Shown here: positions 7,760-58,978 of the stretch, piece after piece
Layout: each line of letters starts with the position of its first letter
Numbering within the stretch: the stretch's first letter is position 1
Assembly (NCBI GenBank): GCA_964386185.1
Contig: CAYLRJ010000067.1
Coordinates: 949 to 64,948, forward strand
Direction: 5' to 3'
DNA length: 64,000 bases
Origin: an uncultured Anaerolineaceae bacterium
GTDB taxonomy: Bacteria > Chloroflexota > Anaerolineae > Anaerolineales > DRMV01
Notes under the pieces: generated by a model
What the model was told of the DNA's origin: nothing
Seen by the model: only the letters and a program-made list of their open reading frames with translations
Databases searched by the model: none
Program-made: the position numbers and the translations under genes

Positions 7760-9690
7760 ATGCCGCACGGTTCCAACAGGTTTCTTCCAGTAAACTCAGC
7801 GGCCAGCAGGCCCGCAGCAGCGGCCCTCGGATGGGGCATGGTATGCCCATGGGGCCGGTGGATAAACCGACCGATTTCAAGGGCACCCTGCGCAAGTTGG
7901 CAGCCTATCTCAAGCCCTACAAGGCCAAGATTTTCATTGTGTTCATCTTTGCCGTGGGCTCGACGCTGTTTTCCATTGTGGGCCCGAAAATTTTAGGCAA
8001 CGCTACCACCACCCTTTTCGAAGGGGTGATGGCGCAACTCGCAGGCACTGGCGAGATTGATTTTGCCAAAATTGGCCAAATTTTGCTGGTCGCGTTGTTG
8101 CTTTACGTCTTTTCTTCGGTTTTAGGGTATCTGCAAGGCTGGTTGATGACCGACGTGGCCATGGAGGTCACCTATGCCTTGCGCAAGGCGTTGATGGAAA
8201 AGGTCCATCGGATGCCTTTCCGCTATTTTGATGGCACAACCCACGGTGAGGTGCTCTCGCGGTTGACCAACGACGTTGATACCGTCAATCGCACTTTAAA
8301 CCAGAGCCTCACGCAGATGGTCACCTCGCTGGTGACGGTGTTGGGCATTTTGGGGATGATGCTCTACATCAGTTGGCAGATGACCGTGATTGCCATCCTC
8401 ATTGTGCCCCTTTCCTTTGCTGCGATGGTGGGCATCATCAAGACCTCGCAGAAGTTCTTTGCCCGTCAGCAGCGGTTTTTGGGGCATGTGAATGGGCATG
8501 TCGAAGAGATGTTTGGCGCGCATCTCATTGTCAAAGCGTTCAACGGTGAAGCCAAGAGCATTCGCAAGTTCGATGGCTACAACGAAGCCCTTTACGAAGC
8601 TGGCTGGAAGGCGCAGTTCCTCTCGGGCATCATGCGCCCGCTCATGCGCTGGATTGGCAACTTGGGGTATGTGGCTGTGGTGATTTTGGGCGGCTGGCTG
8701 GCCATTCGCAACCTCATCACCGTGGGCGACATCCAGGCTTTCATCCAATACATGCGTTCATTCACCCAGCCAATCACCCAATTGGCGAACATTTCGAACA
8801 TCCTCCAGCAGACGGTAGCCGCGGCTGAGCGTGTGTTTGACTTCCTGGAAGAGGAAGAGGAAGCCCCCGACCCCGCCGACCCGGTCAAGTTGGAAACCGT
8901 GGCCGGGCGGGTGGAATTCCGCGATGTGCATTTCGGCTATTTGCCAGATAAGATGGTGATTAAAGGCTTTACGGCACGCATTGAGCCAGGCCAGAAGGTG
9001 GCCATCGTTGGGCCTACAGGCGCCGGGAAGACCACCATCGTCAAATTGCTCATGCGATTTTATGATGTCAACCAAGGCGCCATTTTGGTGGATGGCCACG
9101 ATGTCCGCTCGTTTGCGCGGGCCGATTTGCGGCGGATGTTTGGCATGGTTTTGCAAGATACGTGGCTTTTCAATGGCACCATTATGGAAAACATCCGCTA
9201 TGGCCGCTTGGACGCGACCGACGAAGAGGTCATCGCCGCGGCCAAGGCCGCGCGCGCCCATCACTTCATCCGGGCTCTTCCCGAGGGCTACAACTTTGTA
9301 ATCAACGAGGAAGTGACCAACATCTCTCAGGGCCAAAAGCAGCTGATTACCATCGCCCGGGCTATTTTGGCCGACCCGGCGATGCTGATTTTGGACGAAG
9401 CCACCAGTTCGGTTGACACCCACACTGAGTTGCTGATTCAGCAGGCGATGGATGAATTGATGGCCGGGCGGACCAGTTTTGTGATTGCGCATCGGCTTTC
9501 GACCATCCGCAACGCGGATTTGATTTTGGTCATGCGCGACGGCAACATTGTGGAACAGGGCACGCACGACGAATTGTTGGCCAAAGGCGGCTTCTATGCC
9601 GAGCTTTACAACAGCCAGTTTACCCAGCCGCTCACCGAAGACGACGTGCCCCTCGGGCGCGCGCTGGGCTCCGCGCCCAGCCCGGCCTGA
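7756..9690 (+). CDS. ABC exporter, fused permease/ATPase subunit (heterodimer partner)
   Basis: 644 aa. Walker A 'GPTGAGKTT', signature 'ISQGQKQL', Walker B 'MLILDEATS'. ATGA overlap with the upstream subunit. Confidence 0.9.
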   Translation: MNAARFQQVSSSKLSGQQARSSGPRMGHGMPMGPVDKPTDFKGTLRKLAAYLKPYKAKIFIVFIFAVGSTLFSIVGPKILGNATTTLFEGVMAQLAGTGEIDFAKIGQILLVALLLYVFSSVLGYLQGWLMTDVAMEVTYALRKALMEKVHRMPFRYFDGTTHGEVLSRLTNDVDTVNRTLNQSLTQMVTSLVTVLGILGMMLYISWQMTVIAILIVPLSFAAMVGIIKTSQKFFARQQRFLGHVNGHVEEMFGAHLIVKAFNGEAKSIRKFDGYNEALYEAGWKAQFLSGIMRPLMRWIGNLGYVAVVILGGWLAIRNLITVGDIQAFIQYMRSFTQPITQLANISNILQQTVAAAERVFDFLEEEEEAPDPADPVKLETVAGRVEFRDVHFGYLPDKMVIKGFTARIEPGQKVAIVGPTGAGKTTIVKLLMRFYDVNQGAILVDGHDVRSFARADLRRMFGMVLQDTWLFNGTIMENIRYGRLDATDEEVIAAAKAARAHHFIRALPEGYNFVINEEVTNISQGQKQLITIARAILADPAMLILDEATSSVDTHTELLIQQAMDELMAGRTSFVIAHRLSTIRNADLILVMRDGNIVEQGTHDELLAKGGFYAELYNSQFTQPLTEDDVPLGRALGSAPSPA

Positions 9691-9879
9691 CCTCGGCCAA
9701 GGCGTGGCCGCGCCTCAGGTGGCCTAAACCTTGCAAAGCCATGAAGTGCGAGGCGCTTTGTTGCTTGGTGGCCTCGCGAGCCGCTCGCTGGGGTTGGGCG
9801 CGCCGCAGCCCAACCCGTGAAGGTGGGCATCGTGTGCCGCGAGTTCGGTCGCCGCTGAGGCGCGCGAGGCGTGGGTAAG

Positions 9880-9899
9880 CGGGGGCGTTTTCGCCCCCG
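9880..9899 (+). terminator. GC-rich hairpin downstream of ABC operon (possible terminator, no U-tract)
   Basis: CGGGGGCG-tttt-CGCCCCCG, a perfect 8-bp stem with a 4-nt loop. It is followed by gtcttgcg, which is not a proper T-run. Confidence 0.3.
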
Positions 9900-9953
9900 G
9901 TCTTGCGCACGCTGGCCCTGCGAAGCGAGGGACGACCCAAAGCCGCGGTTTTT

Positions 9954-9962
9954 TGATACAAT
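9954..9962 (+). promoter_or_regulatory. Extended -10 element (TGaTACAAT) 6 nt upstream of the PBP-like gene ATG; implies leaderless transcript
   Basis: TG at 9954-9955, TACAAT at 9957-9962, then ctcacc, then ATG at 9969. No SD is possible in the 6-nt gap. Confidence 0.4.
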
Positions 9963-9968
9963 CTCACC

Positions 9969-12725
9969 ATGCCGCATCTTTCGTACATCCTTCGGGCTCG
10001 TCGTCGTCGTGAGGCTGCGGCCCGCCGCCGTTGGAGCACGCGCCTGCGCCCTTGGGGGTTGGCCATCCTCATGGCGCTGGGCTTGGTGGTGGCCGGCGCG
10101 AGCGCGGCCGCGGCCGGAGGCTACGTTTACCTCACAGCCGACTTGCCCAGCCCGGCGGTGCTCCCGGCCTGGTTGGATGCCCCCCACGGGCTTTTGCTGA
10201 CCCCCAGCCGCTATTTGGCCGCCCAGGGGGAACCTTTGGCGGCTGTCGCTCCAGCCCCTCAGCCCGTGACCCTGAACGATTTGCCCGCCTACGCACCGCA
10301 GGCAATTTTGGCCGCAGTAGACCCTGATTTCTATGCCCAACCAGGGTATGCGGGGCATTTTTGGCAAACCGACCTGCCCCCCACGGTGGCTGAACGGTTG
10401 GCCACGCGGTTCCTGCTCTTTGCCGAGCCGGCCTCGACGCGACGCCGTTTGCGAGCCCGCATTTTGGCCGCCCAAATGGTTTCGCAATATGGCCACGACA
10501 AGGTCTTGACGTGGTATCTCAACATCGCAGATTTTGGGCATGGCTTCTACGGCCTTGAGGCTGCCAGCCAAGGCTATCTGGGTAAAAGCGCAGCTGATTT
10601 GAGCCTTTCGGAAGCCGCTTTGCTGGCGGCCATTTTGCCCGATCCGGCTCTCAACCCCTGGGACGCGCCCGAAATCGCGGAACAACGGCGGCAGCAACTC
10701 ATCATGACCATGCTGTCGCAAGCCCGCATCACCGCCCCGCAGAGTCAGGATGCCCTTCCTGACACCCCGCACGTGCTTCCCCCGCCTCAACAAGCGTCGC
10801 CTTCCCCGTTGCTGGTCTTGGCCAAGCAACAAGTGGCCGCCGACTGGCCCCTGCCAGAGCGCGGGCTGACGGTGTTTACATCGGTGGATGCGTCGCTCCA
10901 AGCCCAAGCCGATTGCCTGCGCGAGGCTGTTTTGCAGGCCTCGCCCAACGCCGAAAATCAATGCTCGGCGGCGCGTTTCTTGCCCCCGCTGCTGTTGGAA
11001 CACCCCTTGCCCCCCGATGCTGATTTGGAAGCCGTCGTGTTGGACGCGACCAACGGCAGCATTTTGGCCTTGAGCTTGCCGCAGCCTGAGCCGGCTTCTC
11101 ATCCGCCGGGCAGTGTTTTGGCGCCGTGGGTTTACGCGGTGGCGTTTTCGCGTGGGTTTGCCCCCGCAACCCTGACATGGGATGTCCCGGCCAGCCTGCC
11201 CTCGGGCGTCGAGGCGGCCAACGCCGATGGCGAATTCCACGGCCCCATGCGCCTGCGGGTGGCTTTGGCCAATGATTATCTGGTGCCCACGCTGCATCTT
11301 CTGGACCAGCTGGGGCCGCAGACGGTGTGGGCTACGGCGGCGCGCATTGGGCTCCCGGCTTTGCAGGGCCAAGCCGCGTTGGGGTATGGCTTGCTGCTCG
11401 ATCAAGGCCATCTGAACTTGGTTGAGCTGGCGCACGGCTATGAGGCTTTTGCCACGTTGGGGCGCTGGCGGGGGCTTCCCCACGATGAGGTGTTGACGGC
11501 CGACGTTTTGGCGCAGGTGGTTGACGCCGATGGCAATTTGCGGTTTGATTATCGCCCCGCCCAGCAGGGCGTGTTGAGCCCAGGCTTGGCTTATTTGGTC
11601 ACCGACGTGTTGGCCGACCAGGCGGCCAAGTGGCCTTCGTTGGGGCACCCTAACCCCTTGGAAATCGGGCGTCCGCTGGCCGCGCACGTGGGGCAAAATA
11701 GCGAAGGCGGGGTGTGGGTGGTGGGTTATACGCCGCGGCGGGTGATTGCAGTTTACGCGCAAGGCCGCACTGCGGCGCAAAGCCAAGATGCCGCCCTGGC
11801 CTATTGGCATGCTTTGGCGCGCGAGGCTTTGGCTTCTCAGCCTGTGGAAAGCTGGCCACGGCCGCCCGACATCACCGAGGTCACAGTGTGCGATCCTTCG
11901 GGTATGTTGCCCACGGCCGATTGCCCCAATTTGGTTGATGAGGTGTTTCTGCAAGGCACCGAACCCACCACGGCCGACACCCTTTATCGGCGTGTGGCGG
12001 TGGATCGGGAAACAGGCCTGCGGGCGACAGTGTTTACGCCTCCCCAGTTGGTTGAGGAGCAGGTGTTTATGATGGTGCCGCCTGAGGCCCGGGCTTGGGC
12101 GCAGCAAGCCGGCTTGCCTTTGCCGCCAGAGGGGTACGATTTGGTCACCTTGCCCCAGCCTTCGCCCAATGCAGTGTTGGTTTCGCCGCGCCCCTTTGCC
12201 TATGTCGAGGGGGAAGTGCCGCTGCGCGGCACCGCGGCGGGCGAAGGTTTTGCTTCCTATCGGGTGCAGGTGGGGCAGGGGCTGAACCCGCAAGCGTGGG
12301 TGGTGGTGGCCGAGGGCAAGCAGCCTGTGAAGGATGGCCTGCTGGGGCAGTGGCAAACCAAGGGCCTTAGCGGTCTGTATGCGGTGCAATTGCTGGTGAC
12401 TGACCAACAAGGCAAGGTGACCACGTTTACCACCCAAGTCACCGTGGATGATCGCCCGCCGCGAGTGGCTTTTGCGCGCCCCCGCGAGGCCGACGTGAAA
12501 GCGGCTGCGCAGCAAGGCCGTCTGATTGTGCAGGCTGAGGCCGAAGACGATTTGCGCCTTGCCTGGGTGCGCCTGGAGGTGGACGGCCGAGAAATCGCCA
12601 CTTTGCAGGCGCCGCCTTATCTGTTTGCTGTGCCGCTACAGCCCGGCGTCCATCGGCTGCGTTTGGTCGCGGCTGACGCAGCAGGTAACGAGAGCCAGGC
12701 TGTCCAAAAAATCGTTTTGCCATGA
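9969..12725 (+). CDS. Class-A penicillin-binding-protein homologue (GT51-like + transpeptidase-like + C-terminal Ig-like domains) with substituted catalytic motifs
   Basis: 918 aa with an N-terminal TM anchor. GT51 framework present ('DPDFY', 'KVLTWYLN', 'GLEAASQGYLGK..LSLSEAALLAAILPDP'). TPase framework present ('PPGSVLAPWVYA', 'WVVGYTP'). The catalytic E/E, SxxK lysine, SxN and KTG positions all differ (see findings). Confidence 0.85.
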   Translation: MPHLSYILRARRRREAAARRRWSTRLRPWGLAILMALGLVVAGASAAAAGGYVYLTADLPSPAVLPAWLDAPHGLLLTPSRYLAAQGEPLAAVAPAPQPVTLNDLPAYAPQAILAAVDPDFYAQPGYAGHFWQTDLPPTVAERLATRFLLFAEPASTRRRLRARILAAQMVSQYGHDKVLTWYLNIADFGHGFYGLEAASQGYLGKSAADLSLSEAALLAAILPDPALNPWDAPEIAEQRRQQLIMTMLSQARITAPQSQDALPDTPHVLPPPQQASPSPLLVLAKQQVAADWPLPERGLTVFTSVDASLQAQADCLREAVLQASPNAENQCSAARFLPPLLLEHPLPPDADLEAVVLDATNGSILALSLPQPEPASHPPGSVLAPWVYAVAFSRGFAPATLTWDVPASLPSGVEAANADGEFHGPMRLRVALANDYLVPTLHLLDQLGPQTVWATAARIGLPALQGQAALGYGLLLDQGHLNLVELAHGYEAFATLGRWRGLPHDEVLTADVLAQVVDADGNLRFDYRPAQQGVLSPGLAYLVTDVLADQAAKWPSLGHPNPLEIGRPLAAHVGQNSEGGVWVVGYTPRRVIAVYAQGRTAAQSQDAALAYWHALAREALASQPVESWPRPPDITEVTVCDPSGMLPTADCPNLVDEVFLQGTEPTTADTLYRRVAVDRETGLRATVFTPPQLVEEQVFMMVPPEARAWAQQAGLPLPPEGYDLVTLPQPSPNAVLVSPRPFAYVEGEVPLRGTAAGEGFASYRVQVGQGLNPQAWVVVAEGKQPVKDGLLGQWQTKGLSGLYAVQLLVTDQQGKVTTFTTQVTVDDRPPRVAFARPREADVKAAAQQGRLIVQAEAEDDLRLAWVRLEVDGREIATLQAPPYLFAVPLQPGVHRLRLVAADAAGNESQAVQKIVLP

Positions 12726-15900: not shown

Positions 15901-16547
15901 CGTTGCGCATCATGGGCGGCATGTTTTTCATGCTCGAAGATTGGTGCACCGCGCTGGCTTACTATTACGAGAGTTTCCAATACAGCGAGGGGCTTTTCCT
16001 GCGCTCTGACTTGCTCTTCCGGCTGGGGATTACGTTTGCTCGGTTGGGCGACCTGCCCCAGGCCGAGAGTTTCCTCGCTTGCGCCATCAAACAACAAGAG
16101 CAAGCCATCCGCCATGTGTGCCCTTTGGCGCGGCTTTCGCAAGCCGAGGTGCTCATCAATCGCGGCAAAATCAAAGAGGCGTTTGCCATCTTGCACACGG
16201 TGTTGCCAGAGGCTCAGGAACACGGCCGCGAGGAAGTGGTTTGCGGGGTGTATTTCCAAGAGGCGCGGGCCTATTTGGCCCAAGGCCAAACAGTGCAGGC
16301 CCAGCGGGCAGCTCGGCGCTTGGTGCATGCCAGCCGGCGCATTGGCTATGTTTGGCTTGAACTCCAAGGGTTGGAGATGCTCCAGCAGATGCAGCAACTC
16401 ACGTCAGAAGAACATCGGCGTTTGCAGCATCTTTATGGCTACATTGCTCGCCTGACGACTCACCCCCATTTGGGCGCCGCGGCGCGCAAGTTTTTGGCCA
16501 AGCGCGGATTACAGGAAGAAAACCTCCCCCAACCCCAGACGCTCTAA
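12999..16547 (+). CDS. SARP/BTAD-family transcriptional regulator fused to AAA/STAND ATPase and TPR-like repeats (AfsR-like)
   Basis: An OmpR-type wHTH followed by BTAD forms the N-terminus. Walker A 'GDTGQGKT', Walker B 'LVLCVDDAQW', and about 600 aa of helical-repeat C-terminus. Start moved to ATG 12999 (MPLEILLLGPP..), because the track's upstream 70 codons cross the AT-rich promoter region. Confidence 0.85.
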   Translation: MPLEILLLGPPQLLEDGAPSLEARQTLRRRERAALYLLAATTAPISRDRLLNMLWGIDADPSKITSALSTTLSRLRSVVPKGALQRTNTGYELVDHPDLFIDYRAFCAVCQHELPRARRIPPQEPLGGALAARLQQALALWRGEFLEGFVPPKGAPEYDDWIVTTSNYLETHYLALLSRLAQHAFASQDYPLAFSLASRALERYPGQPEMLLLALRALRWQGLTERASEFLRVMRARYLETAGQDYDSETLHLAHNLLKRRQRDPKQQETTPWKERQALKVPFVGRKGLLNDLERQAQKGGVALILGDTGQGKTRLLQEFIQRVRDDHRVVTTVCHHGERALPFAPLLGALRRQVNPEEWSQVPEPWWPYLLHLFPEAQRYLPYVPLEHPPAPLQSQLMEVLRQILLVMAREAPLVLCVDDAQWSDAATVEALLYFLERGPFGQDGHFMLITARRETFRESPLGERLWPLVQEGNIATITLEGLTKEEVAILAESVLARRLDDEEAENLWRSAVAGTPLYVLEMLRHQVETGNADRPVREWPMAHRLVPLLEQRLDQLPDDERLVLSYAALQESSFPWQVLKEATGLDEDRLVAALEGLEARGWIQRSDHQSGRILYTFVHDKLREVVDRHISPLRRQSIHGKLAQAWETVLDDAAQSRAAVIARHYQEAGEARRAFQWWIASAHHALELGVARQAHDAFYHAERVLFQEDSTAGFDIHEIWALYAEWALLAADTMDCDTLKHIEQSLLRLAELRRSPVLRSSALNAQAHRLRLHDHLAEALDCTQKALRWLKSVPKSALPQVEICTHHATLLYLQGRVGESIECLNKALEIAKDLDSPLAPLFLGSVYYQRAVADTLSFRPDRGLQQANKALQAYHASRRVFGVADALGIRSLALFMLGRYQEALTDCQEARERAVLFDKRRMLGYLNAYCAFPLSAMGRWAEAWEAANEALTLGKEQFHNAAQGLALRIMGGMFFMLEDWCTALAYYYESFQYSEGLFLRSDLLFRLGITFARLGDLPQAESFLACAIKQQEQAIRHVCPLARLSQAEVLINRGKIKEAFAILHTVLPEAQEHGREEVVCGVYFQEARAYLAQGQTVQAQRAARRLVHASRRIGYVWLELQGLEMLQQMQQLTSEEHRRLQHLYGYIARLTTHPHLGAAARKFLAKRGLQEENLPQPQTL

Positions 16548-17209
16548 GGCATGCTGTAGAGCATTCCCGAGAAGAAGTCGCAAAACACCGAAGACGAGGG
16601 TGGGCAGAGCTCATCCCATGAGTTGGGTGTTTGGTGGAGAAGCCGTTTGTAAGGGGCGAGGACTTCCTGCAGCCCCACGAAGGGCTCATGCAGGTCGGTT
16701 TCGCTCAGGGGGATGTTGACGGGTACATCCAAATCAACCGGCACTTGGGTTTTCACGGGCACGGTAATGTCTAACACAATGGGGAGCACCGTGCCTTTGG
16801 GCAGGACGATGTCGGCGGGCGCGTCTTTGATGAGCAGGCCGCCGGTATGCAGGTCCACTTTGGTGTTGTGAATCACCACATCGTGAGAAAGGACCACCGA
16901 GGTTTTGGTCTTGACTGGCAGGTCAAACACCACGGGAATTTCATCATGCACTTCGACGTGGGTCGAGATGACGGCTTTGTCCATGAGCACGAAGTTCCTG
17001 TCCAAGCCGTCCACCAAGGGCACCAGAGCCTGTTTGAGGGCAAAGAGTTGTTTGGCCATGATGAGCAGCAAAGCAATCAGCACGATGTTGATGGTCATGG
17101 AAATCAAGCTGCTCACCGTCCAAAAAGCGGGCCCAAATTTTCCCTGCCAGAGGAAGCGGGGCATTTCATCAGGGGGCGTTTTTTTTGCGTTTGAGAAAGA
17201 AGGTTTCAT
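16544..17209 (-). CDS. Hypothetical single-pass membrane protein with beta-rich extracytoplasmic domain
   Basis: ATG 17209 is preceded by GGAGGAAAGG. One TM segment (ISMTINIVLIALLLIMA), then repeated V/D/P-rich beta-like segments. The track N-terminal extension (to 17575) is an R/G/H-rich alternative frame of the neighbouring gene. Confidence 0.7.
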   Translation of the reverse strand: MKPSFSNAKKTPPDEMPRFLWQGKFGPAFWTVSSLISMTINIVLIALLLIMAKQLFALKQALVPLVDGLDRNFVLMDKAVISTHVEVHDEIPVVFDLPVKTKTSVVLSHDVVIHNTKVDLHTGGLLIKDAPADIVLPKGTVLPIVLDITVPVKTQVPVDLDVPVNIPLSETDLHEPFVGLQEVLAPYKRLLHQTPNSWDELCPPSSSVFCDFFSGMLYSMP

Positions 17210-17232
17210 AGCCTTTCCTCCCGAGGTCAAGA

Positions 17233-17679
17233 TTAGGAGGATGGCGCGCGTTTGCGCGGATAAAGCAGCAGTAGCCCCACGCCTATGATGAATTCTCCGA
17301 TGAGCACGCCGTAACTTTGGATAGGCCCAAAATGGGCATTGCGAGGCCAGGTTTGCGAACCCAGCCCTAAGATATCGGCCATGGTAGAGGCTGCGACCAC
17401 GACGTAGCCAGTTGCAATCAGGCGGCCGCCGATTTGGGCCGCGATGGAAAGGGGTTCCCCCCGCCACAACACCCGGAAGGCAAGATAACCCGCTGCGCTG
17501 AGCAAGCCCATGCCCACGGTCATGAAGAGGATTTGCAAGAAGCCCACCTCTGGGGTGGTGGCCAGCCCGAGCCATTCGGGGCGGGCGCCCACCGTGAAGA
17601 TGACGAAGCCGCCCAAAGCCGCCGTAAGGCTGAGGGCCAAGAGGGGGTCAGAAGCGGTAGAGCGGGGCGCATGGGCCAT
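17233..17679 (-). CDS. Hypothetical polytopic membrane protein (about 4 TM)
   Basis: Hydrophobic ORF. ATG 17679 has GGAG 7 nt upstream (the track start 17751 is possible but lacks an SD). Lies 23 nt upstream of the next membrane-protein gene, so probably an operon. Confidence 0.65.
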   Translation of the reverse strand: MAHAPRSTASDPLLALSLTAALGGFVIFTVGARPEWLGLATTPEVGFLQILFMTVGMGLLSAAGYLAFRVLWRGEPLSIAAQIGGRLIATGYVVVAASTMADILGLGSQTWPRNAHFGPIQSYGVLIGEFIIGVGLLLLYPRKRAPSS

Positions 17680-20456: not shown

Positions 20457-21233
20457 TTAGTGGCGCAGACGCCATCGCCAGCGCAAGCGCAGGGCCGGCG
20501 CCAGCGCCCGCCGCAGATAATATTTGCCCACAATGGGGGCTAACCAGTGTCCGCCTTCACGAAAGTGTACCCGTAGCATCTCGGGCCAACAGCGGTCATC
20601 GTCTTTGATGGTTTTGGCGTCGCCGTGCAGGCGGAAATTGGCCCACACCCGAGGCACATAGCGAATTTCGCTGATTTTGGCCAGGCGCACCCACAGGTCA
20701 TAATCCATCGCAAAGTAGAAACTGGGGTCTAAAGGCCCAACTTGTTTCCAAAGATTGGCGCGAAAGAACGCGGCTTGCTGCGGAATGTGGACGTACCCGC
20801 GGCGTAGTTTGCGGTAGTCGGTCTGTGCCGCGGGGAAGCGCCCAATGACCCGCCCTTGGGCGTCAATGTAGTTCGCGTCGCCATAAACCAGCCCCACTTC
20901 GGGGTGCGCGACCAGGAACGCCACAGCCTCACGCACCGCGTGGGGCTCGTAAGTGTCATCGGAGTTGAGCCAGGCCAAAATTTCGCCGTGGGCGTGGGCA
21001 AAACCTTTGTTGATGGCGTCGGTTTGCCCCTCATCGGGTTCTGAAACCCACCACGCCAGGCGGTCTGCGTAACGACGGATGATATCCACACTGCCATCGG
21101 TCGAGCCGCCATCAACAATGATGTATTCAATGTGTGGATAATCTTGAGCCAGCACCGATTGGATGGTGGCCTCAAGGAATTGGGCTTGATTGTAAGAGGG
21201 CGTAACGATGGTCACCAAAGGTTGTTCGGTCAT
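20457..21233 (-). CDS. Glycosyltransferase family 2
   Basis: '[42 protein letters not shown]' followed by a 'NSDD' DXD-like motif. No SD; TGcTATCAT lies 6 nt upstream of the ATG. Confidence 0.9.
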
Positions 21234-21264: not shown

Positions 21265-23163
21265 TCAGAACTCGATGTAGTTATCGACGTCGAAGAGGAA
21301 CACCGTCGCGCCCCCGACGGGGACGGGCTTGGGCCTGGGCAACGGCAAGATGTGGCCGGCTTTGGAGGCTACAAAATCAACTCGGCGGCGGCAACTGGCG
21401 CGCAGCGCCTGCACCACAGCCTCGATTTGCCCTTCAGGCACGCCAATGAGCAAAGTGACATTCGGCCGGCTCAGAAACCCGCCGCTGCTGATGATGGGCA
21501 CCACAGGCACCCCCAAGCGCCCCAGCGCCTCGGCCGCGGCTTCCAAATCGCGCTCTTGAATGATGGCCAAAGTCATGTGGCGAATGGGCGGATCGTTGGG
21601 CGAGCGCCGCAGCAACATCCCGGGCCAGGCCGGAAGTTGATCGCTGAGCGCACTGTCTACTTCTGAGGCCAATTCCGAAAAGACCTCTTCGCTGATGACC
21701 CCGGCTTGCAGCAGGTCCAAGAGGGCTGCTCGTTGGGCCCGCAATGATTCCAAACGGGCTTTGTGGAGCTCTTCCATTTGCAGCGCAGGGTGCTTTTGCA
21801 AAATCTCATTGACGGCCTTTTGAAGCCGTTGATTGCGTTGCTCCAACAAGGGGCGGAGCACATCCCACGTGTGGTGCGAGATGACGCCTTGTTCAAAAGC
21901 CCGCCGCAAATAATCATAGCCCGCGCGCGCCGAAACTGCCCGCGCGTGGCGTTTGGCAAATTCCTCTTTCTCTTCGTCGCGCGAGCCAATGTGGAGCCAC
22001 TTGAGCACCCACGGCATCGAGCCGCCTTGCACCAGCAGGGTAAACAACACCACCCCAAAAGCCATCACTTGCATTTGTTCGCGCACCGGCCCCAGGCTCT
22101 CGGGCAGCCCCAAGGCCAAAGCCAGGGAAACCGCACCCCGCAGCCCGCCCCAATACATGACATGTTTCCACGATAGGGGAATACGCTCGCCCACCCACGA
22201 AAGGCCATAAATGCTGAGCAGGCGGGCTATGAGAATGGCGCCCACCGCCCATAACACGGCATACCAATTGGTCATGAGCACATCAGGCCGAATCTGGAGG
22301 CCAATCAGCAAAAAGATGAACGAGTTGGCCAAGAAAGCCGCGAATTCCCAGAAGTTGACCACCACGATGCGGGTGGTGGGCGACATCCCGCGAGGGCCGA
22401 TGTTGCCGTTGATGAGCCCGGCAGCCACCACGGCCAACACCCCGCTGACGTGCAGTTGCTCGGCCACCAGGAACGCGCCATAAGCCAACACCGCGGTGAG
22501 GGCGGTTTCTAAGAGATAATCGTCCACGCGGGCAATCACGCTGGAAACCAGCCCGCCCAGCAGCACCCCTACGAGAAACCCGCCCCCCGCAACGCGGACG
22601 AAGTCAATGAGCCCCTGGCTCACGCTATATTGACCGGTCAGCGCAATGCCCAACAGCAGGTTGAACACCACAATGGCCGTGCCATCGTTGAACAGGCTTT
22701 CGCCTTCCAGCAAAACTTGGAGCCGCTTTGGGGCCCCCAAAGAGCGGAAGAGGGCCACCACGGCCACAGGGTCGGTGGCAGCCACCAAGGCGCCAAACAC
22801 CAGCGCCAAGGGCAAGGCCATGCCTAACCCATAGTGGATGATGAGCCCTACCACAGCGGTCGCCAACACCACCCCTACAATGGCCAACATCAAAATTACG
22901 CCCAAATCGCGTTTGAGGTCGTCCCATCGGATGTGAAACGCGGCTTCGAAAATCAGCGGAGGCACCAACACCCCCAAGATGAGCTCGCCGGTGATGGGCA
23001 CTTCCACTTCGGCAAAAATGGCCAACGCCAGCCCGATGAGCACCAGGCCCAAGGTATAGGGCATGCGCAAGCGGCGGCTGAAAATGCCGACCAGCACCGC
23101 GACGCCAAGGAGGGAAATCACAATCTCTTCGATGAAAATAATGCTGCTTGCGTGCATGATCAC
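21265..23163 (-). CDS. CPA1-family Na+/H+ antiporter (NhaP-type) with C-terminal DarA/PstA-like PII (cyclic-di-AMP receptor, DUF970) domain
   Basis: About 400 aa of Na_H_exchanger TM domain ('ATDPVAV', 'ESLFNDG', '[14 protein letters not shown]'), then a helical linker. The last 106 aa align with DarA/PstA ('SSGGFL', C-terminal '[17 protein letters not shown]'). The start may instead be ATG 23157. Confidence 0.9.
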
Positions 23164-23187
23164 CTCGTGAGGGGTGCCTGAGCCGAG

Positions 23188-25730: not shown

Positions 25731-27704
<1,974 letters not shown>

Positions 27705-33985: not shown

Positions 33986-35359
33986 GTGCCCATGTTTTGG
34001 AACTTTGTGTTGATGTTTGCGCTGATTGCCTTGAATGGCTTTTTCGTGTCGGTGGAATTTGCCGCGGTAGCCGCGCGGCGCCACCGGATTGAGGTGATGG
34101 CCAAAGAAGGCTCGCGGAGCGCCCAAATCGTATGGCGTTGGCTCGAAAGCCCGGCCGCACGCGACCATCTCATCGCGGCCACGCAATTGGGCATCACCAT
34201 TGTCAGCCTGGCTTTGGGTGCCGTGGGCGAAAAAGCCTTTGCTGCCATGCTGGAGCCGTTGTTCCACGGCCGCGAACTGCCTGCGGGGCTGGAGTTTGTG
34301 GAGCGTATTTTGCCCAGCCTGCCTTTGTTGCTCTCGCTGACCATTGTGACCAGTTTCCATGTCGTCTTGGGTGAGCAAGTGCCCAAGGTCGCGACCTTGC
34401 GTTCGCCCGAAAAATTTGCCTTGCGGGCGGCTTACCCGATGATGCTGTTTGAGACCACCTTCCGCTGGTTTGTGGACGCGTTGGACTGGGCAACCCGCTT
34501 TACTTTGCGTTTGCTGGGCATTGAGGAAACCGACGTCCACGGCTCTCACCTGACCGTGGAAGAACTCAAACAAATCGTTTCCGAAAGCGAAGAGAGCGGC
34601 CTCTTGGCCGAAAGCGGCGGCATGTTGACAGCAGTGTTGGATTTTGGCGAGTTGCTGGTGCGGCAGGTGATGGTCCCTCGGCCTGAAATCATCGCGGTCA
34701 AAGCCGACATGCCGCTCTCGGAGGTGATTCCCCTTTTTTCGGAACACGCGGTCACCAAATTCCCCGTGTATGAGGGCGATTTGGACGATATTTTGGGCAT
34801 CTTGCACATCAAAGACGTGGTGCGGTTTTTTGGCACCCCCGACTTTGAGCAAAAGCAAGCCCGCGAAATTGCCCGCGAAGCGCTTTTTGTGCCTGAGACC
34901 CTGCCGGTCATCGAGGTGTTGCGCCGTTTTCGGGAAACGCGCCGCCATATTGCCATTGTGGTGGATGAATACGGTGGCACGGCGGGGCTGGTGACCCTGG
35001 AAGACCTTTTGGAAGAGATTGTGGGCGAAGTCAGTGACCCCTTTGACGAAGAGACCCCTGAAATTGAAATCCTCGCGGACGGCACGGCCATTGTAGATGG
35101 GCGCACGTTGTTGGAAGACGTCAACGAAACTCTGGATGTGGATCTCACCACGCCCTATTACGACACCATCGCAGGTTTTGTGTTGGATCGTTTAGGGCGC
35201 ATCCCTGAGGTGGGCGATGTCATTGAAGAAGAGGGGGTGCGTCTGACGGTCTTGGCGATGGATGGCTTGCGGGTGTCTCGCCTCAAAATCGAGCGTTTGG
35301 AAGCCCCGTCTTCTGATGGCCCCCTCTCGGATGACGCGCCTGCCGCGGAGGCTTCTTGA
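33986..35359 (+). CDS. CNNM/TlyC/CorC-family transporter-associated protein (DUF21-CBS pair-CorC_HlyC)
   Basis: N-terminal DUF21 ('LNGFFVSVEFAAVAARR'), a CBS pair, and C-terminal 'HIAIVVDEYGGTAGLVTLEDLLEEIVGE'. Confidence 0.9.
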   Translation: MPMFWNFVLMFALIALNGFFVSVEFAAVAARRHRIEVMAKEGSRSAQIVWRWLESPAARDHLIAATQLGITIVSLALGAVGEKAFAAMLEPLFHGRELPAGLEFVERILPSLPLLLSLTIVTSFHVVLGEQVPKVATLRSPEKFALRAAYPMMLFETTFRWFVDALDWATRFTLRLLGIEETDVHGSHLTVEELKQIVSESEESGLLAESGGMLTAVLDFGELLVRQVMVPRPEIIAVKADMPLSEVIPLFSEHAVTKFPVYEGDLDDILGILHIKDVVRFFGTPDFEQKQAREIAREALFVPETLPVIEVLRRFRETRRHIAIVVDEYGGTAGLVTLEDLLEEIVGEVSDPFDEETPEIEILADGTAIVDGRTLLEDVNETLDVDLTTPYYDTIAGFVLDRLGRIPEVGDVIEEEGVRLTVLAMDGLRVSRLKIERLEAPSSDGPLSDDAPAAEAS

Positions 35360-38086: not shown

Positions 38087-38116
38087 GCAAAACCCCTCAC
38101 CGCGGGGTGTGGGGTT
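38087..38116 (-). terminator. Intrinsic terminator of the Thx gene (hairpin shared with convergent priA)
   Basis: AACCCCTCACC-gcgg-GGTGTGGGGTT (10/11 bp). An A-run on the plus-strand 5' side gives a U-tract on the minus strand. Lies immediately downstream of the stop at 38126. Confidence 0.5.
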
Positions 38117-38125
38117 GCCAGATGC

Positions 38126-38230
38126 TCACTCGGCCTGTTTTTTGGCCTTTTTCTTGGGCTTGGGGCGGGTCTTGCCGTGGGTGCCCCGCCAAATCTTGCC
38201 GCGTCGGGTGCGGCGATCTCCTTTGCCCAT
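38126..38230 (-). CDS. 30S ribosomal protein Thx (34 aa; below ORF-track size cut-off)
   Basis: Minus-strand translation is [34 protein letters not shown]. It is near-identical over the first 20 residues to Thermus Thx ([20 protein letters not shown]..). GGAGGTG SD lies 7 nt upstream. The gene has its own promoter-like element and terminator. Confidence 0.9.
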
Positions 38231-38265
38231 GACGACACCTCCTGAAACAGGGGAGTATCGGCGCT

Positions 38266-38274
38266 ATTATAACA
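38266..38274 (-). promoter_or_regulatory. Extended -10 element (TGtTATAAT) for the Thx gene
   Basis: The reverse complement of 38266-38274 is TGTTATAAT, about 35 nt upstream of the Thx ATG. Confidence 0.5.
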
Positions 38275-38319
38275 TGGGGTGGCTTCGGGCGCGGCGCGTG
38301 TAAGGGTGCGGCAGGCCTT

Positions 38320-38850
38320 TTAGCGGCCTTCCAGGTAAGGGAGGGCCAGCATGAGGGCAGCCAAGGTTTTGGCATCTTGCAGTTGGTCGCGGCGCGCCAA
38401 GGCGAGCACTTCATCCAGGGGGAGGGCGACGGGTTCCAGAATTTCGTCGGCGTCGGGTGGCAAGGGCGCGGGCGTGAGGCCGGTGGCAAGGTAAACGTGC
38501 ATGTATTCGGTGGAATAGCCCGGCGCCAGGTAGAAGCGCCCCAGCAGCTGCAGGTTTTCGGCTGCCAGGCCGATTTCTTCCCGAATTTCGCGGGCCGCGC
38601 AGGCTTGCGGGTCTTCGTTGGGCTCCAGGGTGCCGGCCGGGAATTCCAACAGCGTGGTGCCCGCGGCGTGGCGGTATTGCCGCACGAACCAAAGCCGCCC
38701 TTCTGCATCCCACGGCACCAGCGTCACCGCACCGTGGTGGGTGATGATGTCCAGCGCGGTTGAGCGCCCGTTGGGTAAGCGCACCCAATCCCGGCGCACA
38801 TCAAAAACTCGGCCTTGAAAGACCTTTTCTGAGCGTTCGACGGTGAACAT
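38320..38850 (-). CDS. NUDIX hydrolase (ADP-ribose pyrophosphatase-like)
   Basis: Nudix box 'GTLEPNEDPQACAAREIREEIGL'. ATG 38850 (MFTVERSEKVF..) has an AGGAG SD; the track start 38898 lies upstream of that SD. Confidence 0.85.
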   Translation of the reverse strand: MFTVERSEKVFQGRVFDVRRDWVRLPNGRSTALDIITHHGAVTLVPWDAEGRLWFVRQYRHAAGTTLLEFPAGTLEPNEDPQACAAREIREEIGLAAENLQLLGRFYLAPGYSTEYMHVYLATGLTPAPLPPDADEILEPVALPLDEVLALARRDQLQDAKTLAALMLALPYLEGR

Positions 38851-38922
38851 GAGGTGGCTCCTAAAAAGGTGAAAGGGTGCTGCACGTGCGTACAGCACCC
38901 TTGGAGAGCGGCAGACAAAAGT

Positions 38923-39591
38923 TTAGGGGATTTGCAACGTTTGGCCGGGCGTCAGCGTTGCGTCGAGGCTGAGGTTGTTGGCGGCTGCAATGGCCTCGGG
39001 CCAGACGTCGCCGAATTTGCAGGCGATGCTGTAGAGGGTGTCGCCGTATTGGACGACGTAGGTGGTGGGGTGAGCCCGCAGCGCCCGCTGATAGGGGAAG
39101 GGGTTGGCGTTGGTCGGGATGGTCAGGGTTTTACCCGGATAGACGATTTGCCCGCGCGCCAGCCCATTGGCCCGCAGCAAGGCGTCGGGGTCAATGTTGA
39201 AGCGCCGCGCCAAGCAGTAGGGGAACTCGCCTTCGTGGAGGGTGTAAGTGGAAGGCACGGTGGTGGCGATGGGTGTGGCCGCGCTGCCCGTGGTCGTGAT
39301 GGGCTTGGGCGTGGCCGTGGGTATCGGCGTCGGCCGCGGGGTGGGCATCAGCGTCGCCAGTGGGATGGGCGTGGGCTGAGGCGCGGCTTCCCCGCCGCCG
39401 GTTTGCGGGGGCATGGCCACCGCAGTTTGCGTTGCGCTAATGTTGGCAACGCCGGTGGGAACGGGGGTGGGAAATTCGTTCATCCCCGCGGTAGGTGTCG
39501 GAGGCATTGCGCCGCTGGCAGAGCGTGTACACGCCCCCAACACGAGTGCGAATACCAGCGCAAGTATCATCCAAAGGGCATATTTTTTCAT
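38923..39591 (-). CDS. Lipoprotein with two LysM peptidoglycan-binding domains
   Basis: Lipobox signal 'MKKYALWMILALVFALVLGAC' and a Pro/Thr-rich linker. Two LysM units ('YTLHEGEFPYCLARRFNIDPDALLRANGL..GKTLTIP' and 'YVVQYGDTLYSIACKFG..LTPGQTLQIP'). AAGGAGAGG SD. Confidence 0.85.
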   Translation of the reverse strand: MKKYALWMILALVFALVLGACTRSASGAMPPTPTAGMNEFPTPVPTGVANISATQTAVAMPPQTGGGEAAPQPTPIPLATLMPTPRPTPIPTATPKPITTTGSAATPIATTVPSTYTLHEGEFPYCLARRFNIDPDALLRANGLARGQIVYPGKTLTIPTNANPFPYQRALRAHPTTYVVQYGDTLYSIACKFGDVWPEAIAAANNLSLDATLTPGQTLQIP

Positions 39592-39685
39592 CACAACCTC
39601 TCCTTGCATGAAAATAAGCAACGGCCTCGTTTCACCTACTTGCGACACCGATACCTGTGGCGTGGGCTACACATGTGCCATGCTA

Positions 39686-39714
39686 AGATTAGCATACGCG
39701 CTTTTGAAAGTCAA
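39686..39714 (-). promoter_or_regulatory. Sigma-70-type promoter for the LysM lipoprotein gene
   Basis: The minus strand reads TTGACT (39714-39709), 17-nt spacer, TGcTAATCT (39694-39686). This leaves a 5' UTR of about 90 nt. Confidence 0.4.
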
Positions 39715-39737
39715 GCGGACTGATGGGGGAGGCCGTT

Positions 39738-41493: not shown

Positions 41494-42462
41494 ATGCCGC
41501 GTCGATTTTTGCCGAAAGTTCTTTTGGTCTGGGTTGGGCTGGCTTGGATGTTGACCGCGTGCCAGCGCCAGCAGGTGCCCACGCCCGCCCCTACACCCGC
41601 GCAGCCCACCGCGCTCCCTACGGCCACGGTGGCGCCTTCTCCTACCGCGACCCCCGCGCCACCGACGGCGGTGTTGTGGGCTCCCTCGGCTGCCACGCCG
41701 TGGTTGCGGGACCCTGCTTGGGCGTGGGTCCAAGCCCTGGCGCAAGCGCACGGTTGGGTCGCGGTGCAGCGCGCGCCCGGTGAGGCGCTGCCGCCCAATG
41801 TGCAAGTGGTGGTGGCCGTCGAGGCAGCCCCCCCGGCCCTCGAGGCGCGTGCCTTGGCCATTGCCCCGCCTGCCGAGGGCGCTTCCTCAGCTCAAGCGTT
41901 GGACCCTACGCCGGCCGATTTGCCCCATCGGGCTTTTGTGGCCGGTTATTTGGCCGCGGTCATCACCCCAGATTGGCGGATTGCCATGCTCGCCACCGAT
42001 GAAGAGGCCCAGGCCGCGGAGGCTTTTGTGGATGGCGGCCGTTATTTTTGTGGTTTGTGTCGGCCGTTGTATCCGCCTTTTGTGGTTTACCCGGCATATG
42101 CGTTGCTTCCGGCTGAGAGCGACGCCACGGCGTGGCAAGCAGCAGTGCAACGTTTGCGCCAAAGCGCGGTGCAGACGTTTGTGGTGAGCCCCCAGGCTGC
42201 TCAGGCGGGCGTGATTCAAGCCCTTGGCGATCAGGCCACCCTGATTGCGTTGGAAGCCCCCTCCTCCGCGGCGGTTTATGCGGCCGCGGTGGTGGCCGAT
42301 GTGGCCGCGGGTTTGGAAGCCTTGTGGGAAGATCCGTCTCTCGCACACGCCGCGGTGCCTTTGCGGTTGGAGGTGTATGACGCCCGCGCGGTGTCTCCTG
42401 GGCGGCAGCGTCTTGTCGAAGAAGTTTTGCGTGACCTGGAAGCCGGCTGGATTGCCCCTTAG
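41494..42462 (+). CDS. Putative lipoprotein (weak BMP/periplasmic-binding-like resemblance)
   Basis: Lipobox 'LAWMLTAC' followed by a PT-rich linker. GAAGGAAG SD. Function uncertain. Confidence 0.65.
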   Translation: MPRRFLPKVLLVWVGLAWMLTACQRQQVPTPAPTPAQPTALPTATVAPSPTATPAPPTAVLWAPSAATPWLRDPAWAWVQALAQAHGWVAVQRAPGEALPPNVQVVVAVEAAPPALEARALAIAPPAEGASSAQALDPTPADLPHRAFVAGYLAAVITPDWRIAMLATDEEAQAAEAFVDGGRYFCGLCRPLYPPFVVYPAYALLPAESDATAWQAAVQRLRQSAVQTFVVSPQAAQAGVIQALGDQATLIALEAPSSAAVYAAAVVADVAAGLEALWEDPSLAHAAVPLRLEVYDARAVSPGRQRLVEEVLRDLEAGWIAP

Positions 42463-45918: not shown

Positions 45919-45939
45919 GCCTTGTTTTCGAGAGATGCC

Positions 45940-47385
45940 ATGACCACGGAAGAAACGCTGGAACCCACTGCCGAAGATTTAGCCGCCGAAGAGGCCTACA
46001 CCCGCGGTTGGGGCGACGAGGTCGATAGCGACCCAGTGTACCTCTACCTTCGGGAAATTGGCCAGGCCAAGCTGCTCACAGCCGATCAGGAATTTTGGCT
46101 CGCGACCATGATCGCCGCGCACAAACAGGTGCAATGGCTGCAAGCCCACCCCAAAGCGCGGGGGCAGGGCGAAACCACCCCCCGGCGGTTGTATTGCGCG
46201 CTTTATACCGAAATGGTGACGGCCTGGCAGCGGGCGTTGGAAGACGTCGCCCGCTGGGGCTGCGAACCCCCCGATTTTGCCCTCCTGACCGCCGAAGCCC
46301 AAATGCTTCACCAAACCTGGCAGAGCGAAACCCCTTCCTACGTCCGGGCGTATCTCAACAATGGCTCATGGGGCAAAGACCCCTTTTGGGATGGCGTTGC
46401 CGCCCAGGTCGTCGCCGTGTTCATCGCGGTCTATGCCCTGCCCGCCGAAGTCGCCGAAGCCTTGGTGCGGTTTCATACCAAACGCCAGCGCTTGCCGTCC
46501 GAGCGCACGTTCCGCCGCTACCTCCCCGACGATGAAGTGCTGCGGGCCGAATTGACAGCCATTGCCGCGCGCGCCGAAGTCGCCCGGACGGCTTTGATCC
46601 GCTCTAACCTGCGGCTGGTGGTCAGCGTAGCCAAACGCTACGTAGACCGTGGCGTGCCCTTGTTGGACCTCATCCAAGAGGGAAATCTGGGGCTGTTGCG
46701 CGCGATTGACAAATTCGACCCTGCCCGCGGCTACAAATTCAGCACCTACGCCACCTGGTGGATTCGGCAGGCCGTGACCCGAGCCATCGCTGAGCAAGCG
46801 CGCACCATTCGGGTGCCGGTCCACATGATTGAGTCGTGGCAAAAATTGCGGAAAATCCAACGCCAACTCACGCAGCGCTTGGGCCGCGAACCCACCTTGG
46901 AAGAAATCGCCTTGGAAAGCGGCTTCCTGAGCGACGAAGAGGCCAAAGCCATTCGCACAGCCCTCGAAGAAGGCCAGCCCCTTTCCCCCCATCTGCAACA
47001 GCGGTGGCGTTTTGCCACAGGCAAGGTGCGCAAGGTGTTTCGCGCCACAGAAGAGCCCCTCTCGCTGGAAAGCAGCATGGGCGACGAAGAAAACAACGCC
47101 CTGGGCGATTTTGTGGAAGATACCGAAACCCTGCGCCCTCTGGACCAAGCCACCCGAGACATGCTGCGCGAGCAAGTGCAAAACGTTTTAGCTGCCCTGA
47201 CCGAACGCGAGCGCCAGGTGTTGGAACTCCGCTTTGGCCTGCTCGATGGCAAGTCGCACACCTTGGAAGAAGTCGGGCGTTATTTCAACGTCACGCGCGA
47301 GCGGGTGCGGCAAATCGAAGCCAAAGCGTTGCGCAAACTCCGTCACCCTTCCTACAGCCGTCACCTGCGGGATTATCTGGAATGA
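45940..47385 (+). CDS. rpoD: RNA polymerase primary sigma factor (sigma-70/SigA)
   Basis: Region 2 '[53 protein letters not shown]' and region 4 '[29 protein letters not shown]'. ATG 45940 is preferred over the TTG at 45922. Confidence 0.95.
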
Positions 47386-53626: not shown

Positions 53627-53651
53627 GGCGTGGTCACTTTGGTCGTGGTGG

Positions 53652-53843
53652 TCACTTGAGGAAGTAGAGGGCCAGGCTCCCTGCCACAGCGAGGAGCGCA
53701 ATCACAAGGCAGCCGATGGTGAAAATTCGCCAGGCCAGCCGCAGGAGAAATTTGAGCGCCAGAAGGCCTAAAATCAGCCCCGCGGCAACGAGAAGCAGAG
53801 AAGCGGTATTGGAGATTTCCAAAAGCGTTAGTTGGGCGTGCAT
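53652..53843 (-). CDS. Hypothetical small membrane protein (2 TM, 63 aa)
   Basis: Hydrophobic ORF '[41 protein letters not shown]'. Start is uncertain (53843 or 53891), and it overlaps the hutI 3' end. Confidence 0.45.
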
Positions 53844-58854: not shown

Positions 58855-58978
58855 TGCCCCAAATTCTCATGGGGCGCACATCTCACCGCAAAAAAGGAGG
58901 TGGTGGCCCTTGAAAATTCCGTTGCCGGTTCGTCCATTGTTCTCCCGTTTCAACCAAAAGTTTTAAGGAGGAGAAGGT

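Follow-up and report, generated by a model that had tools for sequence, protein, structure and literature searches.

What does a PstA-type receptor domain do at the end of a cation/proton antiporter? The question is raised by one gene of an uncultured Anaerolineaceae bacterium (contig CAYLRJ010000067.1, assembly GCA_964386185.1), in a stretch of 64 kb that is called the window here and that gives the numbering of all positions. The gene, a 632-aa open reading frame (ORF) on the minus strand, encodes a Na+/H+ antiporter of the CPA1 family that ends in a PII-like domain of the family of PstA and DarA, the free cyclic di-AMP (c-di-AMP) receptors of Firmicutes. The chances appear evenly balanced that this protein is a nucleotide-gated antiporter with a PstA-type sensor, the ligand most probably being c-di-AMP and short partner subunits probably taking part. 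The layout of the gene and its neighbours is given in Table 1.

The fusion of a CPA1 antiporter to a PstA/DarA-type domain is widespread. In the window its reading frame is unbroken down to the stop codon (21265-21267), and the ORF and its last 106 residues are exactly as given in a preliminary description of this DNA. ATG 23157 is probably the true start rather than the annotated GTG 23163, because the ATG is preceded, at a distance of 5 nt, by a GAGG Shine-Dalgarno sequence, which the GTG overlaps (site 23155-23166); the protein would then have 630 aa, as does a homolog that is 95% identical to it (P0001). Both PF00999 and PF06153 are carried by 120/120 of the best homologs from a collection of 5.8 billion proteins (53-95% identity, 95-100% coverage). 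The assemblies behind these homologs are independent ones from NCBI, JGI, ENA and Logan, and the homologs that carry names are from Anaerolineae, Anaerolineales or Chloroflexota metagenome-assembled genomes (MAGs). In addition, one genome per GTDB species was scanned with an 11-sequence alignment of the tail as query. Relatives were found in 285 places, and the best 80, which were examined, are all from Chloroflexota. With two further loci (L001 and L002) and the window these make up the 83 sequences examined, and the same set minus the window is referred to as the 82 related loci. The tail lies within the same ORF as the CPA1 domain in 45/83 of these sequences, all from Chloroflexota/Anaerolineae. 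A frameshift or misassembly, with the tail as a separate gene, had been named as an outcome that would undo the claim. It is ruled out by the continuous frame and by the same architecture in the 120 top homologs and the 45 loci; nothing was found in its favour and its probability is negligible. Homologs are annotated, where named, as 'Na+/H+ antiporter' or 'CPA1 family monovalent cation:H+ antiporter', and an annotation as 'Na+/H+ antiporter' only hides the regulatory domain. Both Pfam matches are already precomputed for these proteins in public data, so the architecture itself is visible in databases.

The first ~400 residues are a CPA1 exchanger domain, as had been proposed. Residues 21-389 match PF00999 (Na_H_Exchanger) with E 3.3e-75 and 253.7 bits (cut-off 26.2, profile positions 3-375 of 375). 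The NCBIfam equivalog TIGR00831 (a_cpa1, bacterial Na+/H+ antiporter) scores 328.8 bits over residues 11-505, above its cut-off of 279.6, and the CPA2 model TIGR00932 gives 22.7 bits against a cut-off of 238. Thus, the membrane domain belongs to CPA1 and not to CPA2. The best PDB sequence match is plant SOS1, with an alignment that spans residues 15-506. A full-length AlphaFold2 (AF2) model (predicted local distance difference test (pLDDT) score 80.7) matches SLC9C1, SOS1, NHE1, NHE3, NHE9 and PaNhaP. The NhaP/NHE fold of 13 transmembrane helices, with its crossover of unwound helices 4 and 11, is shared with NHE1, NHE9, truncated SOS1 and PaNhaP (target-normalised template modelling (TM) score 0.66-0.81, root mean square deviation 2.8-4.1 Å). 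Between membrane domain and tail the model has helices at residues 397-424, 430-457, 459-486 and 492-507. The preliminary description had taken this region for a linker of about 120 aa; because TIGR00831 reaches residue 505 and the SOS1 alignment residue 506, it is instead the usual cytoplasmic helical domain of the CPA1 subfamily.

In 54 homologs, conservation is complete or reaches at least 90% at E73, T130, D131, S156, N159, D160 and R342, and the T130-D131-P132 motif is present. We take E73, T130-D131, S156, N159-D160 and R342 to be the ion-binding positions of CPA1 antiporters such as PaNhaP and MjNhaP1, a correspondence of pattern and not a residue-by-residue alignment. The pattern presumably consists of TD(P) in helix 4, S...ND in helix 5, a Glu in helix 3 and a conserved Arg. 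Because these positions are invariant or nearly so, an active electroneutral cation/proton antiporter is expected. The membrane part is of CPA1 (NhaP/YjcE/SOS1-like) type and would exchange monovalent cations for protons.

The tail belongs to the CdAMP_rec family (PF06153), which it matches over residues 530-631 with 58.3 bits (63.8 bits if the tail is scanned alone) against a gathering cut-off of 27, at profile positions 3-108 of 109. The two Pfam matches expected for the product are thus both above their cut-offs, and the absence of a profile match for residues 527-632, which would have spoken against the family, is not what was found. Along its entire length the domain aligns collinearly, as had been claimed, with sequences in the PDB, namely PstA of Staphylococcus aureus (4e-11), PstA of Listeria monocytogenes (2e-10) and DarA/YaaQ of Bacillus subtilis (7e-9). 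A single-chain AF2 model of the tail (pLDDT 81.7) has the PstA/DarA fold: the 12 best Foldseek matches are all PstA/DarA chains (TM-score 0.71-0.81), and classical PII proteins reach only ~0.55. The PII-like beta-alpha-beta-beta-alpha-beta core is present with the short T'-loop (GGFL) and the long B'-loop, the latter proline-rich and four residues shorter than in PstA. The DarA equivalog NF058593 scores 61.5 bits (66.9 for the tail alone), far below its cut-off of 140. The tail is therefore a relative within the family, not a DarA ortholog. Family membership and fold are established by these sequence and model matches; a complete c-di-AMP pocket is not.

In S. aureus PstA, c-di-AMP is contacted by N24, R26, A27, T28, F36, L37, N41, G47, F99 and Q108. 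In the crystal structures the site is shared between two monomers, with R26, T28, G47 and Q/H108 from monomer A (the A-face) and F36, L37, N41, the G94 backbone, T97 and F99 from monomer B (the B-face). Measurable binding is abolished by T28A and by a change of GGFL to AAAA (PMC4316997); N41A weakens binding. Gln108, which is His108 in L. monocytogenes, hydrogen-bonds a phosphate of the ligand, and R26 is dispensable, being Gly in L. monocytogenes PstA. Aligned to S. aureus PstA, the tail retains D12, GGFL with F36 and L37, N41, T43, G47, R67, GGA, T97 and F99, and carries the substitutions K2H, N24G, R26P, T28V and Q108E. The complete set of contacts (N24, R26, T28, F36, L37, N41, G47, F99, Q/H108) is thus not present. 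Of the PstA site, the monomer-B half is retained in the tail and the monomer-A half is lost. The earlier designation as a c-di-AMP receptor therefore stands as far as family and fold are concerned. The receptor role itself comes from family membership only, and conservation of the contact residues holds for F36, L37, N41, G47 and F99 and fails at N24, R26, T28 and Q108.

Related loci show how the two halves are distributed. A scan of the 82 related loci and the window with a hidden Markov model (HMM) of the domain, from which the following counts are taken, found three kinds of PstA-like domain: fused to the C-terminus of a CPA1 antiporter (n=45), stand-alone and full (~112-117 aa, n=60), and short (~90 aa, n=94). 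The short paralogs lack the B'-loop and R67. In the 105 long (fused and full) domains the B-face is nearly constant. GGFL is essentially 100% conserved, compared with 92-93/94 for Gly34/Gly35, 69/94 for F36 and 65/94 for L37 in the short domains. N41 is present in 105/105 long and 24/94 short domains, GGA94-96 in 104-105/105 long domains (the short ones having K/R-R-A instead), and F99 in 105/105 long and 90/94 short domains; T43 and T97 are also ~100% conserved in the 45 fused and 60 full domains. T28 is found in 93/94 short domains but in only 18/105 long ones, V, I or A being usual in the latter, and R26 in 89/94 short but 2/105 long domains, where the position is P/S. Position 108 is Q or H in 88/94 short domains and E in 102/105 long ones (45/45 fused, 57/60 full). 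K2 is kept in 79/94 short domains and lost in the long ones, and G47 is invariant in both (94/94 and 105/105). The near-complete conservation of the B-face in 105 long domains argues for a maintained pocket.

The genes for the two types of domain are neighbours. A short gene immediately follows 60/60 full genes and 31/45 fused genes, and the stop and start regions of long and short neighbours often overlap. The gene orders are full-short (38 loci), fused-short-full-short (21 loci), fused only (13 loci), fused-short (7 loci), fused-short-short (3 loci) and fused-full-short (1 locus). Since a short gene follows every full and most fused genes, the unit is a long+short pair, with one half of the PstA ligand site on one member and the complementary half on the other. 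Cluster representatives at 50% identity, 1.84 billion in number, were searched exhaustively with HMMER; of the 2572 matches at E ≤ 0.001, the best 150 were inspected. Among these, 39-40 representatives are single chains of ~210-250 aa in which a full domain is joined to a short domain by a Pro/Ala/Ser-rich linker, which is independent evidence that both domain types act together. Examples are P0244, P0247, P0248 and P0250-P0258, among others. We infer that long and short domains co-assemble, with the canonical c-di-AMP pocket only at the interface of a short (A) and a long (B) domain. Stand-alone pairs might also be seen as split fusions lying beside an unfused CPA1 gene. This was dropped, as a CPA1 gene is found within 10 kb in 0/38 such loci.

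Some members of the collection are unusual. Short paralogs, of which there are 94 in L002-L082 (for example L013 10305-11212 and L002 11904-12869), include one (L082 10306-10581) that scores above the Pfam threshold for classical P-II as well (29 bits, threshold 25). P0324, a protein of 5655 aa, has 23 separate stretches that match tail profile positions ~56-103; it could be repetitive in sequence or an artefact of low complexity. The MAG MEGAHIT-group-2.40 has two CPA1-PstA fusion loci, L025 (JBDRQK010000285) and L036 (JBDRQK010000161), with small PstA-like genes downstream of each; either the cassette can be duplicated in one genome or the bin is mixed.

The window belongs to a clade with L001 and L003-L011, in which the tails are 70-95% identical and the fusion stands alone. 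Downstream there follow a gene for a family-2 glycosyltransferase and then one for an InhA-like metalloprotease, in the same order in L001, the glycosyltransferase gene occupying the position of the short PstA-like gene in most relatives. The A-face is a non-canonical 'VPVVP...E' fixed across the clade, and the B-face is intact in every member. In a neighbour-joining tree of long domains the clade forms a separate group of fused tails, though 106 residues are too weak a basis to date or count fusions. The protein in the window is thus one of three things: a half-receptor dependent on a partner from another locus, a receptor of changed specificity, or a receptor that has degenerated.

If the protein is a gated antiporter, the tail would be a built-in sensor for an adenine nucleotide, most probably c-di-AMP, the binding of which is predicted. 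Depending on osmotic and K+ status, it would turn antiport on or off. If CpaA and KhtTU are a guide, c-di-AMP would be expected to activate cation export. Parallels would be the RCK_C domains of CpaA and KhtTU, and PII-type proteins that plug or release AmtB and SbtA. Because the tail carries only the B-face half and the short paralogs the A-face half, it may not work alone. The working sensor would probably be a mixed oligomer of the tethered long domain and soluble short subunits, and in the window's clade the partner, if any, would be encoded elsewhere. A more specific extension, which is possible but less likely than not, is that Anaerolineae have a split-site heteromeric PII-like c-di-AMP receptor. 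The long subunit would bring the GGFL/N41/GGA/F99 half and the short one the R26/T28/G47/Q108 half, with a complete site only at the short-long interface. c-di-AMP would then control the recruitment of short subunits to the antiporter tail, and perhaps also the upstream hydrolase (see below), and the antiporter in the window would be a membrane-tethered half-receptor. If true, such a receptor would couple cation/proton exchange and compatible-solute breakdown to the osmotic state.

A number of observations weigh against gating by c-di-AMP through such a site. Besides the A-face substitutions and the low DarA equivalog score given above, an acidic side chain does not suit position 108, which contacts a phosphate. 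No short PstA-like gene was found in the 64-kb window or within 10 kb in the 12 loci of its clade, the fusion being the sole match of the PstA-domain HMM in the window. In the single-chain long+short proteins both domains retain T28 and N41. The split-site pattern is therefore peculiar to the pairs of Anaerolineae, and it could be that long domains assemble into one ring and short ones into another. CPA1 antiporters are dimeric and PII-like proteins trimeric, a symmetry mismatch that is a problem for all models. No diadenylate cyclase, c-di-AMP phosphodiesterase (GdpP/PgpH), RCK domain or ydaO riboswitch was found in the window, where Pfam scans covered 44/48 predicted genes of at least 90 aa and Rfam gave 0 matches at gathering thresholds. 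A motif search for diadenylate cyclases (DGA.., GTRHRAA) gave one DGA-type match, at 4498, lacking the RHR motif. The same search found no cyclase over the window and the 82 related loci (~1.3 Mb), which has little weight as each locus is ≤22 kb. Thus, c-di-AMP synthesis by this organism is not demonstrated from the window.

The gene directly upstream encodes an MGH1-like (mannosylglycerate-hydrolase-like) glycoside hydrolase. It is co-directional, 24 nt from the annotated GTG start of the fusion (30 nt from ATG 23157), and no terminator-like site was found in the gap from the sequence and a terminator scan of the junction; hydrolase and antiporter are probably co-transcribed. The protein has no match in the PDB or NCBIfam. 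A homolog is directly upstream and co-directional in 68/73 judgeable related loci, with or without an antiporter, and 33 of these 68 have only the free pair of long and short genes, a CPA1 gene being absent within 10 kb. What stays constant is thus the link between the hydrolase and the PstA-like genes, with the antiporter in a subset of loci. The MGH1-like enzyme family includes compatible-solute hydrolases, and the protein is a candidate for such an enzyme that may be under PII-like control. As c-di-AMP governs K+/osmolyte balance, an osmoadaptation module of hydrolase and antiporter would be a coherent reading.

The gated-antiporter reading has to be weighed against three others. The changed A-face could mean that the tail in the window's clade no longer binds c-di-AMP and is a degenerate receptor, acting as a ligand-independent structural, oligomerisation or docking module. 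T28V, R26P, N24G and Q108E would fit such a loss, T28A alone being enough to kill binding by PstA, as would the 'VPVVP' strand fixed across the clade, which is also the sole fusion group with no adjacent short paralog to supply the A-face. However, the B-face (GGFL, N41, GGA, T97, F99) is intact clade-wide and ~100% conserved in the 105 long domains, which is hard to explain without a selected pocket, and the gene for a short partner may lie in another part of the genome; degeneration is thus considered unlikely, though it deserves serious attention. Alternatively, the remodelled A-face could serve a different ligand (ATP, ADP, AMP or cAMP, as in SbtB and classical PII proteins, or another), and the tail would report energy state, not c-di-AMP. 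That the changed A-face is itself conserved (E108, P/S at 26, V/I/A at 28) suggests a selected alternative function, and many adenine nucleotides are bound across the PII superfamily (PMC12802241). This appears improbable, as the half-site shared with PII/ATP binding (T28, G47, residue 108) is the altered one, the PstA-specific half with the GGFL T'-loop and the second adenine is retained and fits c-di-AMP better than mononucleotides, and the tail has no Walker-like B-loop motif.

The hydrolase linkage, including the 33 loci with a free pair and no antiporter within 10 kb, also allows the view that the PII-like domains primarily regulate the hydrolase. The antiporter would be a secondary acquisition that tethers one copy, and the fusion would say little on antiporter regulation. 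This view has a small probability: a covalent fusion that is conserved at 53-95% identity in >120 protein clusters speaks for an effect in cis, on the antiporter itself, the identity of the hydrolase comes from a partial PF22422 match only, and a role at the hydrolase and one at the antiporter are not mutually exclusive. The same linkage bears on the earlier argument that the fusion, as a Rosetta-stone link, predicts direct regulation of monovalent cation/H+ exchange by DarA-type domains. The fusion is real and gives a concrete client class. The step to Firmicute DarA is weak, since the constant partners in Anaerolineae are the hydrolase and the short paralogs, and in 38/82 related loci the PII-like pair occurs without an antiporter in the surrounding 10 kb on either side.

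Nucleotide control of antiporters is known from other architectures. PstA (S. aureus, L. monocytogenes) and DarA (B. subtilis) share with the tail the PF06153 domain, a collinear sequence, a fold at TM-score ~0.8 and the residues GGFL, N41, G47, D12, R67, GGA, T97 and F99. They differ in being free Firmicute proteins of ~109 aa, whereas the tail is attached to a membrane transporter in Chloroflexota, is not encoded beside tmk, and has the substitutions, the shorter B'-loop and the DarA equivalog score described above. CpaA and KhtTU, like the fusion, combine a monovalent cation/proton antiporter with a cytoplasmic domain from a c-di-AMP-binding family. However, they are CPA2 antiporters with RCK_C or KhtT, and the fusion is a CPA1 antiporter with PF06153 and predicted ligand binding; no RCK/TrkA domain was found by Pfam in the fusion protein or the window, which sets it apart from the RCK_C-gated class. 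SOS1 (plant NHX7) and SLC9C1 (sperm NHE) are the best PDB matches and also have a nucleotide-sensor-type domain after the helical domain. In them the sensor is a cyclic-nucleotide-binding domain (CNBD, cAMP/cGMP type), with a voltage-sensor domain in addition in SLC9C1; the fusion is bacterial, much shorter and of PstA type. GlnK-AmtB and SbtB-SbtA are cases of a PII-superfamily domain that regulates a membrane transporter, as is proposed for the fusion. Unlike the fusion, GlnK and SbtB are separate trimers that act in trans and dock through a long T-loop on trimeric transporters, whereas the tail is covalently attached to a CPA1 antiporter (solved members are dimers), and its T'-loop is short and its B'-loop long, as in PstA. 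c-di-AMP is a ligand of SbtB too (PMC8654305). The a_cpa1/YjcE-type antiporters (TIGR00831), above whose equivalog cut-off the fusion scores over residues 11-505 with the helical domain included, lack the ~106-residue PF06153 domain that follows the end of the model. In summary of these comparisons, c-di-AMP control of antiporters is known via RCK_C on CPA2, fused nucleotide sensors on eukaryotic CPA1 via CNBD, and PII-type control of transporters in trans, between partners that are both trimers.

c-di-AMP has a central part in regulating K+ and osmolyte homeostasis, and PstA/DarA are the least understood branch of its receptors. It inhibits K+ uptake and stimulates the K+ exporters CpaA and KhtT, and the partner of PstA/DarA has 'escaped its identification' according to the same 2023 review (PMC10636490). 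GlnR was claimed as the first PstA/DarA target in a preprint of July 2026 (PMC13484208). The difficulty of pinning down these targets, pointed out in the preliminary description, is thus a recognised problem. Campeotto et al. (2015) pointed to homologs of PstA among the green non-sulfur bacteria, with three paralogs in Sphaerobacter and Thermomicrobium, and mentioned no fusion. In agreement with the statement that no characterised example was known, no description of a CPA1-PstA fusion was found in the full-text literature searched, which omits many subscription papers. The fusion names a concrete and testable client class, CPA1 cation/proton antiporters, for an enigmatic receptor family, and is a tractable system for how a PstA-type domain passes on its signal. 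The complementary half-sites of long and short domains suggest obligate hetero-oligomeric PII-like receptors, an arrangement undescribed for the family; this is the more surprising result, but it is seen in relatives and not in the window. The constant hydrolase linkage suggests that c-di-AMP-type signalling is tied to compatible-solute turnover in Chloroflexota.

Table 1. Coordinates of the fusion gene, its parts and neighbouring genes (window numbering, except for the hydrolase homologs, which are numbered within their own loci).
Feature	Position	Strand	Evidence or remark
Fusion coding sequence	21265..23163	-	632 aa from GTG 23163; probably 630 aa from ATG 23157
CPA1 Na+/H+ exchanger transmembrane domain, residues 21-389	21997..23103	-	PF00999, TIGR00831, model matches
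Cytoplasmic helical domain, residues ~397-517, four long helices	21613..21975	-	AF2 model, TIGR00831, SOS1 alignment
PstA/DarA-type PII-like domain (PF06153, CdAMP_rec), residues 527-632 (106 residues)	21268..21585	-	Pfam, PDB sequence matches, Foldseek
GGFL T'-loop motif, residues 561-564, monomer-B half of PstA pocket	21472..21483	-	invariant or nearly so in fusion family
Val555 at PstA Thr28 position (monomer-A ligand contact)	21499..21501	-	alignment to S. aureus PstA
Glu631 at PstA Gln108 position (His108 in L. monocytogenes)	21271..21273	-	alignment and family conservation
MGH1-like (mannosylglycerate-hydrolase-like) glycoside hydrolase, 780 aa	23188..25530	-	PF22422, 45.6 bits, partial match only
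Hydrolase homolog in L001	7622-9964		
Hydrolase homolog in L002	7753-9807		
Family-2 glycosyltransferase	20457..21233	-	PF00535, E 3.5e-28; co-directional, 31-nt gap downstream of fusion
gyrB	25776-27704		region chromosomal, near replication origin
dnaG-sigA	43978-47382		region chromosomal, near replication origin
dnaA	57168-58586		region chromosomal, near replication origin

Outside this locus the window consists of housekeeping DNA close to the origin, with dnaA, gyrB, dnaG, sigA, priA and tmk. We take tmk-darA synteny to be the arrangement in Firmicutes; it is absent here, with no darA-like gene after tmk (51797-52429). A CNNM/CorC-type transporter with a CBS pair and a CorC_HlyC domain is encoded at 33986-35356 (+). 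CBS pairs bind c-di-AMP in some proteins, such as DarB; nothing ties this gene to the fusion. Two large ORFs, 9609-12515 (-, 969 aa) and 58886-60595 (-, 570 aa), and the mid-sized ORFs 16547-17575, 38100-38708, 38854-39720, 41494-42459 and 49197-50126 have no Pfam family at E ≤ 1e-4. The 401-aa protein encoded at 52499-53701 (-) has an N-terminal HD domain and a C-terminal CinA (competence-damaged / NMN-deamidase-type) domain, an arrangement that presumably differs from the usual order around CinA domains. Directly upstream of tmk, the start of which it overlaps, lies a gene for a 528-aa protein (50214-51797, +) with a SpoIIIAA-like AAA ATPase region, a 'PTPase' domain (PF25516) and a C-terminal R3H domain.

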